Virus record (IMG/VR): IMGVR_UViG_3300028171_000090
Location: 159,017 to 223,016 of that record
Reading direction: 5' to 3' (one strand)
DNA: 64,000 nt
Source: a virus
Taxonomy: Duplodnaviria; Caudoviricetes
Position numbers and translations under genes: made by a program. The notes below the pieces were generated by a model. The model saw only the letters and a program-made list of their open reading frames with translations. It did not search any database and was not told the origin of the DNA. This document shows, one piece after another, positions 2,808-64,000 of the stretch. The first letter of the stretch is position 1. Every line of letters starts with the position of its first letter.

Positions 2808-2845
2808 TAGATGTAGACTATGCCTAATGGTGTAGTCTACATCTA
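2808..2845. terminator. Long hairpin, probable terminator; contains AGACTATGC
   Basis: TAGATGTAGACTATGCC-taat-GGTGTAGTCTACATCTA followed by a T-rich tract on +. Confidence 0.75.
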
Positions 2846-2949
2846 TATTTTTCTTTTTCATCTTTTTATCTCTCTCTTTTTTATCTTGGAATGTTTTTGT
2901 TTATTAGTTTTTCTCTGTTTTAATTCGTTTTATATTTTTTATATATCTG

Positions 2950-3690
2950 TTTTCCTAGATGAAATGATCCCCATCATCCATCTGGATGCAGGTGAGTCCC
3001 TACGTCACCCGCGGAATGATACCCTCCGTGATGTTATATTCTAAATATATCATTCCTGAATACTTTTTTGTCTGTTTTGTGAACTGAATAAACATAATAT
3101 ATTAAAGTTTCTCCTCTCCGAGAAACTTATACAATTTTACCCATATTTTGTTACACTCGCTATCTCTCTCTTTCTTGTTGAATACGTCACATGCTGTAGA
3201 CATTAGAACGTTTCTCTAAATTTCTACCTACATTCCCCAAAACCGTACAGAGTATAAAGCTTTCCAATGACTTAGTGGTGTCTCCGAATAATCCTTCTCC
3301 GATTACTCTTCTCCTCCGATAGTATCTCCGTCCATCATTGCTTCACACCCCCTCTCGTAAGAGGGTGTGAAGGTATAGCTTTACATCTTAGTAAATCTTG
3401 TCGTGTTTGGGATGTAGTAGTTGTTACATAGCCGATGACCTGATTATAGCCAGGCATCCGTTTTAGACCTAATTAATTAGCCTTAACGTTTTTAGTCAAG
3501 GGGTTTAAGAAGTGTTAGCCTAGTAGTCTACACTAAGCTCGTCTAGCTATAAATAACATTACTACCACTATCATATATCTCTTTATCCCACACCTGTAAT
3601 AAGTACTCCTCGATGTAATCAATTGAAAATATACCTCCATCTTTTTTAGTATGGAGCGTTTAGCATAGTAGTAAAACCATTATCAACACT
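2950..3690 (-). ncRNA. Putative non-coding RNA region with GGAG-rich hairpins
   Basis: No credible ORF. Early-type promoter motif at 3690-3707 points into it. Several hairpins are present (e.g. CTTCACACCC...GGGTGTGAAG at 3341-3372), with repeated CGGAG on the minus strand. Confidence 0.4.
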
Positions 3691-3707
3691 CGTATATATA
3701 ATGTGTG
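3690..3707 (-). promoter_or_regulatory. Candidate early promoter (CACACATTATATATACGA)
   Basis: Partial match to the motif at 9510, 12690, 25776, 26318, 26728 and 51931. Confidence 0.45.
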
Positions 3708-3743
3708 CTTAAATAACGGTTTATTACTATTTTATAAAAAGGT

Positions 3744-3770
3744 ACGAATAGGGACATAATCCCTATTCGT
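3744..3770 (-). terminator. Intrinsic terminator after the RNAP beta' gene
   Basis: ACGAATAGGGA-cataa-TCCCTATTCGT overlaps the stop codon; a T-run follows on the minus strand. Confidence 0.7.
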
Positions 3771-7861: not shown

Positions 7862-9496
7862 GTGGCAAAAGCTAAACGTTGTCCTAACTGTACGAGCACG
7901 TACCCAGAAATTGATGATTTATATGAGCACATAGAAGATAAACATTCAGACGCAATTCCGAAGGGAATGTCTGCTGGTCAATACTTCTACTTTACAAAAT
8001 ATCACCGTAGAAGTGGTCAGTGTGTAGTATGCTCAAAAGAAACACCTTGGAATGATAGTACGAATAAACCGTACAGAATATGTAGTCCAATCTGTCGTAA
8101 AACATACCGTGAGAACTTCTTAAATAATATGAGACGAGTACACGGTAAAGACCATCTATTAGATGACCCTGAAGTACAGAAGAAGATGTTATCAAAACGT
8201 TCTATCTCAGGGGAGTACCAATGGTCAAATGGTGCTCGTAAGGGTTATGTCGGCTCTTACGAAAAAGACTTTTTACGTTTCCTAGATATCTTTATGGGAT
8301 TTGAACCAGATGATATCCATGCTCCAGCACCTCAGATTATTGAATATGAGTATGAAGGTAAAAAGCACTTCTATATTCCTGACTTCTACATCGAGAGTAT
8401 CAATACAATCGTAGAGATTAAAGATGGTGGAGATAATCCAAATACTCACCATAAGATTCAGGATGTGGATAAAGAGAAGGAGAAAGCAAAAGACGAAGCA
8501 TTATCTAAAACTGGTCAATACAATTACATCAAGATTGTAAATAAACAGTATGCTTCCTTCATCAAGTTCCTATTAGAATTACGTAATAGTGACCAAGATG
8601 GAAAACGACGAGAAGTATTTCATCCTGTCGTAATGATTAACGAGAATGTACAAGCGTTGCAAGAAAGCGTTGTAGCTCAAAAGGATTTATTCCTAGCAAT
8701 CGTAAAACAGAATGTGCCAGGATTATCTGAAGAAGAATGTGGATGGTCAATCTGGTTCTCATTCGATTGTACATTTGACACAGTATATAAATCGTATCCA
8801 ACTACTGATATGGTTGGAGATAAAACATATGCTTGTGCGAAATTTACTACGGTAGATAAGAGTGCTGTTATTGGTGATGCTAGTTTCAATATCATGAAAC
8901 TAAAACAACCAGCATCATTAGACACTCTTTATAAGAAAGTGCAGATGCATATGAATGAACCAATGTTCTATTCTACCGAAGGTGGGTCTATACCTGGATT
9001 AGATATCATTTGGTTATTCGATGATATGCAAGGTGGTCGCTGTTTTGACCATACCGAGAAAAACATTACAAGTTGCAGTCAATTGATTAATGAATTAAGT
9101 CCAGCGTTCCAGTATCTTATGACGGTACCGAACTTAAATACATTTGACTACAATAAGTTCTTGCAAGCAGAATGTTCTGTAATTTCTGAATCAGTCATGA
9201 ACATGAATATCGATGAGCTGTACGAGACCTTTATAGGTACACCTGAACAGACTCTATTGGAATCTGATTATGAAGCAATGACTGCACCTGCACCAGAGGA
9301 AGCAGATCACTACGATTCACGTATTGATGAATATGAAAACTATATGGATCATATCGGTAAAACTTCTGGTATGGAACACCTTCATCGTTTAGGTGCTAAA
9401 ATTAAGAATGAGTTCACTGGTTCTGACAATCAACGTGAAGCTCTTATAAGAAGATTGGCTCACCGTAAACAACAATTGGTGAAGGTTAAAAGTTAA
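7862..9496 (+). CDS. Zinc-finger + TnsA-like PD-(D/E)XK nuclease (head-completion nuclease-like) with long C-terminal extension
   Basis: CPNC...HIEDKH, CVVC...CSPIC, YIPDFYIESINTIVEIKDG. Late-type promoter AACAACTAATTA upstream. Confidence 0.65.
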   Translation: MAKAKRCPNCTSTYPEIDDLYEHIEDKHSDAIPKGMSAGQYFYFTKYHRRSGQCVVCSKETPWNDSTNKPYRICSPICRKTYRENFLNNMRRVHGKDHLLDDPEVQKKMLSKRSISGEYQWSNGARKGYVGSYEKDFLRFLDIFMGFEPDDIHAPAPQIIEYEYEGKKHFYIPDFYIESINTIVEIKDGGDNPNTHHKIQDVDKEKEKAKDEALSKTGQYNYIKIVNKQYASFIKFLLELRNSDQDGKRREVFHPVVMINENVQALQESVVAQKDLFLAIVKQNVPGLSEEECGWSIWFSFDCTFDTVYKSYPTTDMVGDKTYACAKFTTVDKSAVIGDASFNIMKLKQPASLDTLYKKVQMHMNEPMFYSTEGGSIPGLDIIWLFDDMQGGRCFDHTEKNITSCSQLINELSPAFQYLMTVPNLNTFDYNKFLQAECSVISESVMNMNIDELYETFIGTPEQTLLESDYEAMTAPAPEEADHYDSRIDEYENYMDHIGKTSGMEHLHRLGAKIKNEFTGSDNQREALIRRLAHRKQQLVKVKS

Positions 9497-34395: not shown

Positions 34396-37300
34396 TTAGT
34401 ACTTTTTCCCTTTGGCAATATTTTTGGCTGATAAGTATCCTCGTTGGACGGGATTACTATTTCTATCTTGTGTAGTCAAAACATTGAATGGATTTGCATC
34501 CACAGCCATTATATTGACGGGAGTCTCTGAATTGGTTGAATCCTTATCGTTACTATCGTTTTGAGTTTGTACATTGTTTTGCACTACAATATTATGTTCC
34601 TTCTGTGCTATTTCAGACGTGTTATCACGTATCACATCAGTGTTTCCTGCGATGCGTTCAAGCACTTCTAGCACCTGAGCATAGCCCATATTAGAAGAAT
34701 ACTCTTTTGCAATGCGTGAATCTGTCAACGCTTTATTCATTCTGTCCGCATCTCTAGAGATGGTTCTAGATAAGAAGCTACTAATTTGAGAACCATCCAT
34801 AGTGTTTGGTTTCGCAGTAGGAGCTTGAGGCGTTGGATTTGCTTGCTTATACACATTTGTAACCTTAATCTTAGGAGCTTCTAAATTCAGCGGAGCTGAA
34901 GTATCTTCTCCTTCACCACCATTACCAGCACGTTGCGTTGCCGTGTTTGGCATCGTATTGAAACGTGTAAGGTTATTCTGACGAACATAGGTTTTTAAGC
35001 GTTGAGTATAACCGTCACCAACTGTTGCATAGTGAGGTAATAATCCATCGATAGAGCGCTGCCAATCGCTTGTCATAACGCCAGAGTACCATTGAGGGTT
35101 ACCTGCAATAGTTTTTGCACCATGGTTGATGATACCATCATTGATACCAGTCATACCACGGAATCCATCCATGATACTTACTCGACCGCCACCTGATCCT
35201 TCGTGTGTTTTCGTATTAATAACAGGTCCTTTATAAGTTGAACCCTCTTTAATACCGAATACGTTATTTAGGATTGTACTTTTACCCCAACCAGATTCTT
35301 CAATTGCTTGTGCGATTGTAGTAGATGCTGGGATATTATAGTTCTTTTGGTTCTCAATTGCTTGAGGTGCAACTAGATTAATGAATCCTTCTTTACCTAG
35401 TTTCAAGTCACGTATGTTTTCACCTTTGTTACCACGGTAAACCGGGTTTCCTCGTTTGGTCTGACCAATTTGAGGACCAATAGGTTGCATGTCATACGGA
35501 GTTGGTTGTCCAGGTTTAATGTCGCCTACAACGCCACCTGTTGGACCACTAGTTGCATTTGGTGCTGGACCTTGAGCTGTAACCTCTGGTTCATATTTCG
35601 ACGGATCGAATTCTTTACCAGTCATTGCAGACTCAGCTAAACCAGCCGTATACTTACCGTATTGAATAAATGCATCCATAAGAGTTGGTTCTTTTTGCTG
35701 AACAGCCGCAGCTGTCATTGTTTGACCATCTGGCATTGTTACACCTGGAGCTGTTGTGATGCTTCCAGATAAACCTTTACCATTCTTAGTTGCTACCCAT
35801 GCATTACGCATTGATCCGAAGATTGTGCTTGTAGGGTATTCAATACTACGTTCTCTACTTACAGGGTCATTTACAATAATCTTCGTACCATCTGGAGAAA
35901 CTCCACGACCTACGATGAAGTGACCACCGCTTGTAAATGGTTTTCCACCTCGACCAGACATAACAACAGGTTTTCCATCACGAAGTGATTGAAGGATTCT
36001 GTCTTTGTTACTGCCAGCATCTTCGAAGTTTACACCATACGCGTTACCAATTGCTTTCCAGTAAGACCATGCAGTACCTGCACCTGGAACACGGTGACCG
36101 TGTTTAACAGACCAGTCAGCGGTCTCTGGAGGAGTAATCGCTTTATTGTTAAATGAACTTAATACCATTGCGGCTGAAGTCGGACCACAACCTGCAACTT
36201 TAATTGAATCTGCACCATACATTGTACTAGCCCAACGAGGGTCACCTTGTGAGTAGTACACCATACCGTTTGCAATGTCTCCAGAACCAGGGTTTGTAGA
36301 AACTCCATCCTCTGGACCATTACCAGCTTGACCTGTACGATGTCCATATAACTTATTACATTCTTCACCAATGCAGTCTCTAGAACTTAATCCATTTCCT
36401 GCACGGCTTGTATTTCCGTTACGTTGGTTTGCATCTTGCTGTTGACGATCTTGAGCGCCACCGAACACACTACCGAGTGCATCCATGCCTTGCTCAACTT
36501 TATTACTACCCCAATTCCAAGCGGATTTTGCACCGTTAACGATTCCAGATCCAAGGTCTTTTGCACCTTCAACGACACCGCCAACAAATGATGATTCACC
36601 GTTACCGTTCTTCATGTTAAACCAAGAACCTAGGGTAGAGTTTAGATTATCTAAACCTTTGCCTATACCTTTCGTTACATCACTTACGAAGCCTCCAGTG
36701 TCTTTTAACAGACCATTCCACATGTCCGAGAAACCTTTAGCTACATCGCCTGCAACTTTACCGATAGAATCTCCCCAAGAATTTAGTTTCTCAGATGCAA
36801 TATCTGATAACTTCATAGGGTTCCCATCTTTATCTTTCTTACCTAATAATCCACCGAAGTAGTCATCCATTTTACCAGGAGCTTTACCAATCCAATCGAC
36901 CGTGTCCGAAGTCCACTTACCGATGTCTTTTCCGATACCTTTCCACGTTTCCGCAACAAGTGTACCAATATCTCCTGCAACGCGAGCTGCTTCTTTAGAG
37001 TATTTATTCCATGTATTAGATATACCTTTAGACAATGGAATATTATTTCCTTTTTCATCTTTCATGCCAAAATAAGCACCCATTGTAGCATCGGCTGCTG
37101 TGACACCTAAACCAATATTCTTTTTAGTTTTATCTTTGAAGTCTGTAAATTGTTTACTTGCGTCATCCCAAAGAGATTTAGCAGAGTCTTCAATTTTTAA
37201 TAGGAAACCTTTCGTAGTCTTAGAAGCATCTTCGGAGTCAATTAGACCTCCAGTAATCATTTCAACGAATTTACCTTCAGCTACAGAAATACGGTCACTA

Positions 37301-55000: not shown

Positions 55001-56009
55001 TTATTTAAAAATGGCTGATAAAGATTCTGACTTAACGTCTACGAATCTATTTGGTGTATCTGAATTACTTGTACCAATGTGTGCACAGAAAGATGACTCA
55101 CCTCGTACAGCCATGAACTACGTTCAGAATAAACATATCATGCCATGTAGAAAGTATGATCCATTACTTGTAGGTAACGGTTCAGAAAAAGCATTGGCAC
55201 ATATCATCTCCGATGACTTTGTATTCAAAGCAAAAGATGATGGTAAAGTTATGGAAGTAGATGAAGAATTAAATACCATTGTTGTAAAATATAAGAACGG
55301 TGAATTCGATGTTATCGAAACTGGTTCTAAGGTATCGAAGAACTCTGGTGGTGGATTCTTTATCTCTAATAAACTAGAGTCAAAACTAAAAAAGGGTGAT
55401 TCATTTAAGAAAGATGATTTCCTAGCAATGAATACACAATTCTTTAATGAAGACCAAGATAGTGGCGCTACGTATAAATTAGGTACGATGGCGAAAGTTG
55501 CTATCATGAGTGGTTATTACACATATGAGGATAGTGTTATGATTACCGAAAAACTTTGCGATGATATGACAACGAACGTTATCGTAAAGAAAGATGTCGT
55601 ATTAGGACCTAACTCTAACATTGGTTATATGGTAGAAAAAGGGCAAGCGATTGAAGTTGGACAACCTTTATTAATCTTCGATAACTCGTATGAGGATGAA
55701 GGGATGAATAAAGTATTAGCAGCAATGGATGAAGAATTGTCTGCTGAGATATCCAAACTAAGTAAGATACCTGTTAAGTCCAAATATAGTGGAGTCATTG
55801 AAGATATTAAAGTCTACATCACTGTAGATGAATCTGAATTATCTCCAAGTATTAGACAAATTATTAAAAAGATTAACGCTCCTGTTATTAAGAAAGGAAA
55901 GTTAATTGGTAAGCATACTGATGTAACGAAAACGGATATTAGTACATATCCAGTTACAAAGACAGAAACAGCTAACGGTAAGATTAAAGGTGTGGAAGTC
56001 GGAGAGGGT
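52089..56009 (+). CDS. Phage RNA polymerase beta subunit, exon 1 (1307 aa; spliced product 1396 aa)
   Basis: KPVSKTGPDEVQ, GILCMSTNPSGAVGITREL, DDSPRTAMNYVQNKH, AKVAIMSGYYTYEDS. The ORF-track tail KSIALYKSL is intron read-through. Confidence 0.9.
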
Positions 56010-56241
56010 AAAAGTATTGCTCTCTATAAATCTCTCTAATTGCTGGGAACTCTCACTGAGACAATCAGCAGCGAAGCCTTTAAATAGGAACGTTCAACGA
56101 CTATTCCGAAAGGAAGTAGGACACAAGCGTGTTCGAAACGGGAGACACTCGTTAGAGTGAAGATATAGTCTAGTCTGCATGGTGACATGTAGAAGTTCAT
56201 AAGAGAACTGGTTCAGTGTAGCGAACTGAATTGAATATACG
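56010..56241 (+). mobile_element. Group I intron 1 (232 nt, ORF-less, IA2-like)
   Basis: 5' exon ends GGAGAGGGU and pairs with IGS GCUCUCU (U.G). P/Q elements AAUUGCUGGGAA and AAUCAGCAG, R element UCAACGACUA, P7.1/P7.2 hairpins, S element AAGAUAUAGUCU, terminal G. AGUAU pairs with exon 2 GUACU (P10). Confidence 0.9.
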
Positions 56242-56313
56242 GTACTAATAGAATTTTATATTAACTATGAAGATCGCATGGGAGTCGGCGATAAGTTGAC
56301 TTTCTTTACGGCT
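56242..56313 (+). CDS. RNAP beta exon 2 (72 nt micro-exon, VLIEFYINYEDRMGVGDKLTFFTA)
   Basis: In frame with exon 1; contains the conserved GDK motif. Confidence 0.88.
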
Positions 56314-57361
56314 GGGTAACAGGGTCCTTTATCTGGTGACAGATATCGAAAACTCCTTTAATTGCTGGGACATCTTACCGAGACAATCAGCAGCCAAGCA
56401 TTATCATGTATAATTCTATAACATTACAACACCTTTATAAGAGGTGAATGATTATGAGAAAAACTGAAATATTTAAACTAATTACATTACCTGATATAAA
56501 ACCTAGATATTGGGTTAGTAACATGGGAAGAGTTTATAATAGCAAATCTAAAAAGTATCTTAAAGGTAGTCCTGATAAAGATGGGTATATTAGGGTTAAT
56601 TTAACTAAATTTAATGGAAAAAAGAAAACTCTTAGAGTGCATCGATTAGTAGCTATTTATTTTATTAAAATTAAGAGACCTGATCAAGATCAAGTTAATC
56701 ATAAAGATGGTGTAGTTTCTAATAACGATCGTTCTAATTTAGAATGGTGTACTAATGAAGAGAATAAAGACCATTCTATTAGAACCGGGTTACGGTGGTA
56801 TCATAAAGGTGAAGATGTATCACATTCATTTTTTACTAATGATCAAGTGCATCTAATATGTAAGATGCTTGAAAAAGGCAACTCTTATAAACAAATAGCT
56901 AAAAAATTAGATTTAAAGTTTAATGAAAATTTAGTTAAACTATTATATACAATAAAAAGTGGTTCATCGTGGAATCATATATCAAAAGATTATAATATAC
57001 CTAAAAAATCTATGAATCAGGTATTTACTAAAGATGACATACACAGATTCTGTCAATTGATGGAACAAGGGTATGGTAATACTGAGATTGCTAAATTAAC
57101 TACGGGCGTATTAGATATTCCTAAAAATAAAATTATAGGAACTTTAAATCAGATACGTTTTAGAAGATGTCATAAAAATATTTCTAAAAATTATACATGG
57201 TAAATGAAGGTTCAACGACTATTCCGAAAGGAAGTAGGGTGCAAGCGCATTCGAAATGGGGAGCATCTCATAGAGATGAAGATATAGTCTAGTCTGCATG
57301 GTGACATGTAGAAGTTCATAAGAGAACTGGTTCAGTGTAGCGAACTGAATTGAATGTTTCG
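56314..57361 (+). mobile_element. Group I intron 2 (1048 nt) with HNH ORF in the P6 loop
   Basis: AAUUGCUGGGAC, AAUCAGCAG, GUUCAACGACUA, AAGAUAUAGUCU and a terminal G before TTA AAA GGT. Splicing restores GDKLTFFTA-LKGIV. Confidence 0.88.
56454..57203 (+). CDS. Intron-encoded NUMOD4-HNH homing endonuclease (I-HmuI-like)
   Basis: YWVSNMGRV (NUMOD4), VHRLVA..VNHKDG..NNDRSNLEWCTNEENKDH (HNH), two C-terminal HTH-like repeats. GAGGTG RBS and own AACACCTTTATA promoter (56428-56439). Confidence 0.92.
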   Translation: MRKTEIFKLITLPDIKPRYWVSNMGRVYNSKSKKYLKGSPDKDGYIRVNLTKFNGKKKTLRVHRLVAIYFIKIKRPDQDQVNHKDGVVSNNDRSNLEWCTNEENKDHSIRTGLRWYHKGEDVSHSFFTNDQVHLICKMLEKGNSYKQIAKKLDLKFNENLVKLLYTIKSGSSWNHISKDYNIPKKSMNQVFTKDDIHRFCQLMEQGYGNTEIAKLTTGVLDIPKNKIIGTLNQIRFRRCHKNISKNYTW

Positions 57362-60208: not shown

Positions 60209-61909
60209 ATGAGTTTATTTAAGAAATTATTCGGATTAAATCCTGAGCCACAAAAAGAACCTGTAAAAGAGATTAAGGAGGATAAACTAGATTATAAAAA
60301 AGACTTTGATGAGTTCTTTGCTTATCTAGAGAAACCTTTTACTCCTGATGACACAATGGTTCTTAGAGATTTTATTTATAAAAATAGAACCTCAATAGAA
60401 GGTATTGGAAAAATTTCAATACATATGAAACCATTAGAGAAATTTATTAATGAAGCTACATTTATGGAATTGCTACGATTAACAATTCTAAACTTCTATA
60501 ATTTCCCTAATCGCAAACACTTTATTCTAGTAAAACTACAACGTAGTATTGCATTAAATGAGTGTGAAACATTAATGAATAGAGCTGCGGGTGCATACTT
60601 AGAAGCTTTAGATTTAGGTGATAACTTATTCTTTAGCAATAAAATGAGAATGACTGAAGACTATATCAAAGAACGTAATGCTCATACTAGTGAAAAATAC
60701 ACTACCGATGTACCGACTATACCTTCACATCAGAAAACATATGAAGAGAGTAAAAGAGGCAGGGAGCCAGAACATAAATTTATTGCAGACGTAGCAGATA
60801 AAGCTGTACGGGAAATGGATGCAAAGATAGTAAGAGAACTTCATCCAGGGACTCCTGAACACGATCAAATTATGGCTGATATTGCTGAAGGTAATCTAGT
60901 TCCAACTGCAATTAATTATCCTGATAGTGAAAACGTTAAACCCTATACTGGACCAGTAGAGTTAGATTTAGCTCGTACACATCCGGCTAAAGATTTAAAA
61001 GAATTGGAAAAAGAATTATTTAAGCAACCAGGTGCTTCATTTGTAGACCTGAAAGGTTTATCTGCAATTGAACTTCAAGAGATAATAGAAGCTAGTAAAA
61101 GAGCAATAAAATCTGTTGATGTGACAGTAGATTTACAAAATGAAGATTTATTAGGTGCACATAAAAAATTAGTAAGTGCATCAGCTACCGCTATGGTAGA
61201 CTATCAAATATTTAAAGCTTTAGATGGTAAAGAGCGTAAAGCTACTAAAGACCTTGCTAAGGATATTGATAAAAAATCCGTAGAAATGTTTGCGTCTACT
61301 GAGTCTGAAGCTGAAAAAGAAAATCCTAGAAGCCCTGGGTTTATAGATTCTACAGTCTATAAAGAATCAGGTATATTTGCACCTGTAGCAGAGTATGGAC
61401 CAGATGAGGAAACAAAAGAAATGAAATCGTCTGGCGCCATTCAAAACTACGTAGAAGAATCATTTGAAATTATTCCTCGTCCTACAATCAGTGCGATTGC
61501 TAGAACAATGAAAGAGGGATTAGAGAAGTATGGATACCGTAACTATATGGGAATCCCTAAAGAAGAACATATTGGACGAGCAATTCGCCATATGTATGCT
61601 TACCTAGATGGAGATACAACTGAGGAGCATTTAGCTCATGCTATCACACGTTTAGGGTTTGCAGTTGAAATGAAACACATTGAAGAACAAGAGGGTAGAC
61701 ATGAATTGTTCCCTCATCTAAAAGATGTGTTAAAGAAAGAAGAATCAAATTCAATTATAACAGATTATATCACTACACATAGTACAGCCCAAGTTTCTGA
61801 CATGACAGTGAGAGCTAAAGCTCAATCTATGTTTGATCTAGGTAAAGGTCAAAGTTTAGAGAAACTTCGTAACGATAGTGTAGAGAAGCTTCAAGGAGAT
61901 AGAGTATAG
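60209..61909 (+). CDS. Large protein with C-terminal DUF5664 (dATP/dGTP diphosphohydrolase-like) domain
   Basis: PRPTISAIARTMKEGLEKYGYRNYMGIP..AIRH..YLDG..EEHLAHA at about 61475-61680. Confidence 0.75.
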   Translation: MSLFKKLFGLNPEPQKEPVKEIKEDKLDYKKDFDEFFAYLEKPFTPDDTMVLRDFIYKNRTSIEGIGKISIHMKPLEKFINEATFMELLRLTILNFYNFPNRKHFILVKLQRSIALNECETLMNRAAGAYLEALDLGDNLFFSNKMRMTEDYIKERNAHTSEKYTTDVPTIPSHQKTYEESKRGREPEHKFIADVADKAVREMDAKIVRELHPGTPEHDQIMADIAEGNLVPTAINYPDSENVKPYTGPVELDLARTHPAKDLKELEKELFKQPGASFVDLKGLSAIELQEIIEASKRAIKSVDVTVDLQNEDLLGAHKKLVSASATAMVDYQIFKALDGKERKATKDLAKDIDKKSVEMFASTESEAEKENPRSPGFIDSTVYKESGIFAPVAEYGPDEETKEMKSSGAIQNYVEESFEIIPRPTISAIARTMKEGLEKYGYRNYMGIPKEEHIGRAIRHMYAYLDGDTTEEHLAHAITRLGFAVEMKHIEEQEGRHELFPHLKDVLKKEESNSIITDYITTHSTAQVSDMTVRAKAQSMFDLGKGQSLEKLRNDSVEKLQGDRV

Positions 61910-61993
61910 GACATATGTCCTATACTTTTCTTTATTATTATTAAAATTAATCTATTTTATAATAATAAGTTACTACACGTCTAACATAGTAAT

Positions 61994-62290
61994 GAGATAG
62001 ACCCACCAGAGAGACAGAGAGGCTAGGAGATTGTAATATTAATCTTCTACCTCTCTGGTGGGGTATCATCGGAGGCGGGTGGGAATAGATAAGTGTTACC
62101 CGAACCGAAGGGAAGGGGAACATGCACTAGAAGAAAGAAGTGCGGTCCTCCCCGAAAGGGGGAGGGCGCTTTAAAGTTAGAATAATAGACACGAGAGAGG
62201 GAGACGAAGCTCTGAGAGGTGAGAGGAGCGAGAGCCCCGGGAACCCGAAAGGGAGAGGAGGTTCCGCCGAGGAACTACAGCACTTTCTCT
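61994..62290 (+). ncRNA. Putative GC-rich structured non-coding RNA
   Basis: Promoter AACATAGTAATG (61983-61994). 12-bp stem CCCACCAGAGAG/CTCTCTGGTGGG, GAAA-capped hairpins near 62150 and 62244-62253, no ORF. Confidence 0.55.
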
Positions 62291-62338
62291 AAATACAGTC
62301 AAAATCTCTTAGATTTTATATAGTTTTACAATCTTTCT

Positions 62339-63982
62339 AACAGTGTATTAGGGTACTGGTAAAGGTCCCTATGCAAATTTATTACTTGAAAGAGAAATAG
62401 ATTCTATACAAACTAAAAACTTTCATTCCAACATTTTTAGTAAACCTTTTCAGAATCTATTATCTCTAGACTATGCATCCGACTATACCTTAATTGGTAT
62501 AGTCAATTTTATTTTAATATATAACTAACATATAATTACATAAGTGTCTATGTGTAAATTCTTGTGTGAAACGAATGTTATTATTAAACCCTTAATAAAT
62601 TTCATAGACTATGCCGAGTATAACCTCTCCCAGGTTATACTCATTATTTTTTAATATTATGCTAACATTTTACTAATCTAAACATCATTTGCTTCATAGC
62701 AAATTACCTCATAGATTATGCCGACCATCACTTCCCCTAGGAGTGATGGTTAATTATTTTTTATTATTACTATAACATAATAATAACCTTAATAGGATAA
62801 GATTACCCACATAATCTTATAACAATTGCTTACACAAACCTGTAAGACTATGCCGACTAATACCTCCGGGTATTAGTCATTTTATTTTTATACATAAGCA
62901 ACATTATTATAACCGTGATAACCTCAAATATTCATGGTCTTACTCGTGATATGAATTTTGTCATTTTATAAGTTTCTTAGCTTATGAGACTACGCTGGTC
63001 AAAACGAGGCATCAATTTTTCCAAATTGATTTGCTTTCCTTCCGTTGGGAATTACCAACTAAATTCCATATAAGGGTCCTGACTATGCACGAAGAAGCCA
63101 CCGTTTGGCTTCTTCACTATTTTACGTCATTTTATATTTTAATATAAAGATAACAAAGTATTAGGTTGCGTAACAATACTGGAGCGTAACCGAGACACAA
63201 GCTGGTATCTGTTGATTCATTCGAACGACGGTACTCCTGATATAATTTATTATGTATTTAAGACTATGCAGACCATACCTTCGGGTATGGTCACTATTAT
63301 TTTCTATCTTAGTAACATTATTATAAGACTTAGTTCTGTTTGTGTTTGTTGATATTTTTCAAATATCACGGAAAGAACTCCATTTATAGACTATGCTCCT
63401 TTCAAATTTTAATGTTTATTATTTTTGTAGTTTTAGGGAGACTATGAAGAGTACAACCTTAGCGGGTTGTACTCATTTTATTTTATTGTAATAACATATT
63501 ATTAGTGGACTAGCGCCACAGTGATTCTATTTGGTGTATTTAAGACTATGCCCTTCGTTTATAAAAGTACTTAGATGAAAAATACCAGTAGATTATGCAG
63601 AGTATAACCTTAACGGGTTATACTCAAATTTATTTTTAATATCGCTATAACATAATAGTATGAGAGTGAGTATCTCATATATTCAAAAGTGTTTATAGAC
63701 TAAGCCTATCGATTTCAATGATAAACTAAACCCTACTATTTATTTATCATTACAGAAGAACCCAGAGAGGTTCTTCCCTTTCTTTTGTCGTTTATGATAA
63801 AGTTTTACTAAGTAGGTAACATATTATTAGTTGATGTATGATGGTAACAAACGCGATACTTCATTTCCTTTTGAATCTAGACTACGTGAAGATTTTTACC
63901 TAACTGAATGATGATTACTACTACTTTTTTACACATAAAATCCATCACCAACTACTGAGTATAACCTTAACGGGTTATACTC
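62339..63982 (+). ncRNA. Tandem array of >=10 small-RNA transcription units sharing an AGACTATGC motif
   Basis: 10 AACA-N6-TA promoters, 13 AGACTATGC-like motifs and 10 terminator hairpins with T tails, in repeating order. No ORFs on +. Confidence 0.8.
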
Positions 63983-64000
63983 CTTTATTTTATTTTTTAC

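Follow-up and report, generated by a model that had tools for sequence, protein, structure and literature searches.

On comparative evidence, a non-coding gene of ~320 nt near the end of the window (the 64,000-nt stretch of DNA analysed here, which is the final 64 kb of a 223-kb, 90%-complete virus record with 35% GC) represents a real and new family of structured phage RNA, falling in none of the families tested. The gene lies on the plus strand at 61994..62316, with its 3′ end placed by prediction at 62310-62330, and it very probably makes a transcribed, folded RNA. Its own late promoter, the lack of a conserved ORF, the conserved fold and the fixed place at the head of a small-RNA cluster are all shown by comparison of homologs. 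The initial annotation had proposed a structured-RNA gene heading the array, and synteny, promoter conservation and covariation agree in pointing to one. Few structured RNAs reach this size, and those that do often carry out unusual biochemistry. The family appears confined to one uncultured clade, and what is said below of its function is read from sequence.

The source is an uncultured, AR9/LPJP1-like jumbo phage from soil. Its RNA polymerase beta gene is nearest to those of Listeria phage LPJP1 and AR9/PBS1, its lysin is nearest to Bacillus phage lysins, and its host is probably Bacillus-type. Upstream of the RNA gene, and outside the RNA unit, lies a gene with a dATP/dGTP diphosphohydrolase domain (PF18909; 60209..61909, plus strand) that serves as a synteny anchor; its intrinsic terminator (61901..61938, plus strand) insulates the RNA gene in the window genome. 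Downstream, an array of ~17 promoter-tag-terminator small-RNA cassettes occupies 62339..64000 (plus strand) and continues ~0.75 kb beyond the window end in the related sequence L006. Positions 7435-14584 of L006 are absent from the genome record, and comprise the end of the array and, beyond it, conserved sequence that encodes RNase HI and a weakly Nudix-like product. ARAGORN detected no tRNA genes in the window or the genome record. The polymerase beta gene of the window is interrupted at 56000-57330 by sequence of a group I intron, which carries an HNH-type gene and has a duplicated 3′ core; in several relatives the polymerase gene is uninterrupted (1396 aa).

Transcription is predicted to start at G61994, because the extended late promoter (61964..61994, plus strand; non-virion RNA polymerase type) matches the AR9 late consensus, whose final base is the start site (PMC5312081). 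The promoter core, AACA-N6-TG at 61983-61994, lies right at the island start, as the initial annotation had noticed, and ~20 bases upstream of the core are also conserved in both clades of homologs described below. Since the 3′ helix pairs with 62298-62310, the gene reaches ~62310-62330; the interval first marked out (61983-62290) thus captured a real island but closed ~25 nt too early. The island is the most GC-rich non-coding stretch of the 223-kb genome, in which the gene is single copy. It is 64% purine, and its GC content, 51.6% for the interval as a whole and 45-57% in individual 60-nt lines, is lower than the 55-65% first estimated. The earlier statement that there is no ORF holds for conserved frames only: small ORFs are present (e.g., 50 aa at 62140-62292), none is conserved across homologs, and one-base, frameshifting indels between homologs exclude a shared reading frame. 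A 26-aa Arg/Lys-rich ORF in the homolog L015 was rejected as a gene product, as the sequences of L032 and L034 shorten it to 10 aa. The rest of the genome contains no antisense target of at least 15 nt. In both clades, a further copy of the core of the clade B array tag lies 5 nt before the RNA's promoter (61970-61977), and the tag may therefore resemble a promoter DNA element. In L034, a NUMOD4/HNH endonuclease gene (8268-8807) is inserted directly before the promoter.

Homologs were sought by anchoring on the upstream gene and on the polymerase, which recovered ~four lineages with RNAs 60-99% identical. Clade A is comprised of the window phage, L031 and L010-L012, and clade B of L015/L016/L021, L017/L018, L034 and L032. 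Identity is 83-99% within clade A and 81% between the two clade B types compared; between the clades, the RNA is 60-64% identical, whereas identity of the polymerase gene is 78%. Zero to two other genes (plus the HNH gene in L034) separate the RNA from the anchor gene, yet the RNA always abuts the array. All copies share the 5′ hairpin, a GG-run loop with its closing stem, GNRA-type hairpins, unpaired stretches of purines only, and a 3′ rod that includes a three-way junction. In clade B, 98% of cells are paired (41-62% in slid controls), with seven double-changed pairs and a covariation score reached by none of 500 shuffles; in clade A, 99% are paired, far above slid controls, with four double-changed pairs and covariation above all 500 shuffles, and these statistics lean high in both clades, given ~four independent lineages, kinship that inflates covariation, and structures derived from the same alignments. 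Structure-preserving changes are found in both clades and there is no coding signal, as expected of a structured non-coding RNA gene, with few lineages contributing. The copy in L017 carries a 42-nt insert that includes a GAGA-capped hairpin.

Beyond these lineages, database searches of 50,697 GenBank phage records, IMG/VR and GTDB genomes returned no homolog, nor did BLAST against the whole genomes of AR9, LPJP1, SA1, BpSp and phiR1-37. A covariance model and a profile HMM, run on AR9, LPJP1, SA1 and two relatives from IMG/VR, were likewise negative, and the imperfect alignment behind the model means that remote homologs may escape it. Pattern matches in L022-L028 proved to be unrelated GC-rich coding DNA.

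The predicted fold has a minimum free energy of -113 kcal/mol (z -4.97), equalled by none of 100 shuffles, and in six of six homologs the promoter strand folds better than the opposite strand (z -3.6 to -8.1). Unpaired bases are 85-94% purine (six copies). All parts of the fold lie on the plus strand. The 5′ hairpin, H1 (61996..62067), has an 8-nt purine bulge and a 12-bp core helix (62002-62013 with 62051-62062) that bears out the long hairpin originally noticed there, and it shows compensatory changes in both clades. It is followed by a G-tract (62071..62083) of four GG runs with 1-nt spacers, held in the loop of a short closing stem (~62064-62070 with 62088-62091). ViennaRNA predicts a quadruplex here, which would have two tiers; the tract has the joint-top G4Hunter-like score in the genome, and a G-tract with 1-nt loops appears in 2-5% of shuffles. 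Spacers and stem sequence turn over among homologs while the pattern of four or more GG runs is kept, and in L032 the closing stem is wholly replaced in sequence, with stem and GG runs retained. If this conserved, stem-capped tract is a true quadruplex, it would add to the few natural cases in which a phage RNA quadruplex has a function.

Hairpin H2 (62093..62123) contains G/A-rich internal loops, and its equivalence across clades was judged by eye. Hairpin H3 (62136..62172) is capped by GAAA(G), and homologs have GNRA-type loops at the same place; GAAA-capped hairpins are thus present, as the initial annotation had described. A purine-rich single-stranded linker with a conserved UUUAA (62170..62192; ~75 nt in clade B) leads into the 3′ rod domain (62193..62310), which consists of outer helices, a side hairpin (62210-62225), and an inner helix (62227-62234 with 62283-62290). 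At its apex, a three-way junction combines a 3-bp GNRA hairpin (GAAA loop; 62244-62253) with a second hairpin (62260-62276) that is longer in clade B, and ACUAC lies at 62274-62278. The rod covaries despite its distance from the promoter, and contains many G-U pairs. Two stems from the initial annotation are probably wrong registers: the inner AGAGG/CCTCT stem shares its 3′ bases (62050-62054) with the outer helix, and so is an alternative register rather than a nested stem, and the nested GGAACC...GGTTCC pairing is absent (six best domain folds; 4/4 homologs), with the hairpin at 62260-62276 preferred.

Comparison with known RNAs supports the novelty of the family. Rfam 15, including RNase P, SRP, tmRNA, 6S, GOLLD, ROOL, OLE, riboswitches and ribozymes, gave no family at the gathering threshold and best scores of 14-18 bits, which is chance level, in both clades. 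The earlier remark that no tRNA, tmRNA, RNase P or SRP signatures were recognised is upheld by the lack of any ARAGORN or Rfam match. A tRNA is marked by its acceptor stem, T arm and CCA end and a tmRNA by its tag frame; ARAGORN detected neither kind of RNA in the window or genome, and neither the window nor L032 keeps the GGAUUCGA-like string. The S domain of SRP RNA is a rod with a GNRA hairpin, and in helix 8 a symmetric CAGG/AGCA internal loop beside the GNRA stem binds Ffh. The window RNA is alike in that its long rod terminates in a junction bearing a GNRA hairpin of 3 bp, but differs in having no Rfam match, no Alu domain, and no such loop in the flanks of 62244-62253 or of the homologous hairpins. 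As for retron/DRT ncRNAs, the reverse transcriptase domain PF00078 is absent from the 90%-complete record, and no such Pfam match occurs among the scanned neighbour genes. CsrA, TRAP, Hfq-type AG repeat and Shine-Dalgarno motifs are not enriched over shuffles, which argues against a CsrB-type, TRAP or Hfq sponge. Several apparent likenesses (the tmRNA 5′ end, RNase P CR-V, glycine and TPP riboswitches, the hairpin ribozyme, the 23S L11-binding region, and group II intron domain V) were rejected, as they are not kept across homologs. Literature searches on RNA of AR9-like giant phages found nothing relevant.

The RNA is also comparable to several phage and plasmid RNAs. Kayvirus lncRNA1/2 (PMC7698491), GOLLD and ROOL (PMC5737381) are likewise protein-free, with their own promoter, a multi-helix fold and a place in a phage RNA-gene cluster, and abundant lncRNAs adjoin phage tRNA genes (PMC7698491). 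They are longer, however (525-581 nt or more, versus ~320 nt here), and are distinguished from the window RNA by its tagged small-RNA neighbours, lack of tRNA genes, extreme purine bias, G-tract, and lack of an Rfam match. The ARRPOF and GEBRO motifs (PMC5737381) are similarly GC-rich and structured and derive from plasmid replication regions, but they are plasmid-borne rather than phage-borne and gave no covariance-model match. sRNA005 of the Pseudomonas giant phage 201phi2-1 (PMC11512511) is a conserved structured RNA of phiKZ-like giant phages, although it is <250 nt and comes from a tail-gene 5′ UTR, a context unlike that of the window RNA.

We assign a probability of about 0.45 to the reading that we favour most, a free-standing late non-coding RNA acting as a stable scaffold or decoy for protein binding. 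A free stable RNA fits the covariation of the 3′ rod, the presence of GNRA hairpins, the insertion that L017 tolerates, and a location heading an RNA cluster (as for the Kayvirus lncRNAs and GOLLD/ROOL). The phage non-virion RNA polymerase would start at G61994, and the 5′ hairpin and stem-capped G-tract could then block 5′-to-3′ decay (by RNase J1, in a Bacillus-type host), while the 3′ rod and a U/A-rich tail would end transcription and shield the 3′ end. The GNRA hairpins may dock domains, leaving the nearly pyrimidine-free single strands open for a phage or host protein, and a candidate for this partner could be a factor that reads the array tags.

Each locus has ~17 tagged cassettes, and the tag differs by clade with an ACUAY core kept. 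The large RNA contains ACUAY once, partly within a helix; at this site, eight letters of the clade B tag are present in the RNA of clade A, and six of the clade A tag in that of clade B. A shared reader protein, recognising the RNA and two tagged arrays through the ACUAY core, would make this a late-infection ribonucleoprotein hub without a known counterpart, an idea that we consider doubtful. Direct base-pairing of a tracr-like scaffold with the tag, one of the functions first suggested, is very improbable. Beyond adjacency, its support is an 8-bp match in three clade B copies that is lost in L032 and clade A; in every homolog, duplex energies with both clades' tags are no better than those of shuffles (p 0.15-0.97), and the longest complement between RNA and array is 9-10 nt. 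As tag pairing does not exceed chance in either clade, a tracrRNA is largely refuted; changes in the tag are not matched by changes in the RNA, and the record, as noted, has no PF00078 reverse transcriptase. A new class of ribozyme or processing enzyme, with either the array RNAs or itself as substrate, would draw on the multi-helix fold with its GNRA loops and three-way junction, on the ACUAY string common to the RNA and both clades' tags, and on its fixed place beside small-RNA genes, much as processing RNAs adjoin tRNAs. We regard this as improbable, since no known ribozyme family in Rfam matches, identity between the clades is 60-64% with the few invariant blocks mostly helix strands, the cassettes have their own promoters and terminators and so need no processing, and the second array has no such RNA alongside. 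Slightly less probable still is a cis-acting DNA element (a packaging site or single-stranded DNA hairpin signal) with incidental transcription. Under DNA parameters, too, the strand is predicted to fold (z -3.7 and -6.9), and several loops could be GNA mini-hairpins, but the G-U-rich helices, the strand-specific folding and the conserved promoter exactly at the fold start speak against a purely DNA-level role, and of the cis elements first suggested, the origin survives as an RNA-primed one.

The free-RNA reading does not itself account for the extreme RNA:DNA hybrid stability of the unit, a property central to the main rival explanation, which we consider possible, though on the unlikely side: a transcription-primed replication origin, like ColE1 RNA II or the mitochondrial CSB II primer. 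The G-tract would nucleate an R-loop (perhaps as a hybrid quadruplex), the purine-rich body would remain hybridised to the template, and either termination or cleavage by phage RNase HI would leave a 3′-OH beside AT-rich DNA. To our knowledge, no replication origin has been mapped in AR9-like giant phages, and a true origin here would be a concrete, testable one for the group. ColE1 RNA II and T4 oriF/oriG share with this locus a promoter, a folded 5′ part, a G-cluster ~80 nt downstream, a hybrid-prone purine body, an AT-rich flank and an encoded RNase HI. The mitochondrial LSP-CSB II primer is alike in the same respects and provides a precedent (PMC3488243), although the window RNA has no sequence likeness to any of these, has a covarying 3′ rod, and has no antisense regulator in sight. 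The promoter, G-cluster, hybrid-stable body and AT-rich flank of an R-loop-primed origin are all present as sequence properties: for stability of RNA:DNA hybrid over DNA duplex the best 60-nt window is in the top 1e-5 of both strands, though hybrid scores in part restate base composition, and both flanks of the gene are among the weakest 0.04-0.12% of duplexes, though AT-rich flanks are ordinary for promoters and terminators in this genome. Homologs all score -0.29 to -0.34 per nt, where group I introns and the RNA islands of AR9 give -0.10 to -0.17, and the G-tract, with its joint-top score, lies in a single-copy unit. The distant relative L005 has a non-homologous G-run and polypurine non-coding unit (3190-3400, minus strand) at a gene-divergence point before its polymerase beta gene, with the strongest hybrid-forming score among those compared. 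However, the best hybrid-forming stretch falls inside the covarying 3′ rod in most homologs, a non-coding unit of this kind is absent from AR9 and SA1, LPJP1 having only a G-run, in AR9 and LPJP1 the RNase HI gene also adjoins this neighbour gene, so that its closeness is inherited synteny, and GC skew tracks gene direction without an origin-like switch.

The stretch was found in 15 soil metatranscriptomes; libraries that contain the phage include SRR7500503 and SRR8437431. In two fragmented ones, the contig over the RNA gene is the deepest in 6 kb, at ~2.5x the upstream gene (24 versus 9.6, and 47 versus 17.5), values that derive from contigs without strand or ends; in two others, the RNA gene lies within long contigs of flat depth. 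The depth is a weak hint of expression, because nearly the whole phage assembles from these RNA libraries and DNA carry-over is possible. A contig break at the predicted start site was rejected as a transcript end, being explained by a strain variant (L019). The near-complete assembly from RNA libraries is itself of interest: if the DNA contains uracil, like that of AR9, this could explain the rarity of the phage in DNA collections.

Other islands were observed in the window and in related phages. At 2830-3760 (minus strand) of the window, a second long non-coding gap follows an RNA-polymerase-like gene, with hairpins, a purine-rich tail and then a terminator, and its hybrid score is the second-best on that strand. 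A G-tract of LPJP1 at 139319 was rejected as a like unit, as it falls in an apparent group II intron. Elsewhere in LPJP1 (75857-76670; L064), two runs of six G lie upstream of the polymerase beta gene, between a late-type promoter and DNA that is very AT-rich. In AR9, an unannotated GC-rich non-coding island of ~390 nt (KU878088.1, 207945-208330, minus strand; L087) adjoins g242, RNase H (g241) and a tRNA at 208905; it has no Rfam match and no likeness to the window RNA, and is a candidate RNA in a cultured phage. AR9 also contains, at 35575-36330 (L049), two tandem, near-identical non-coding units of ~370 nt with a G-run start and no Rfam match.
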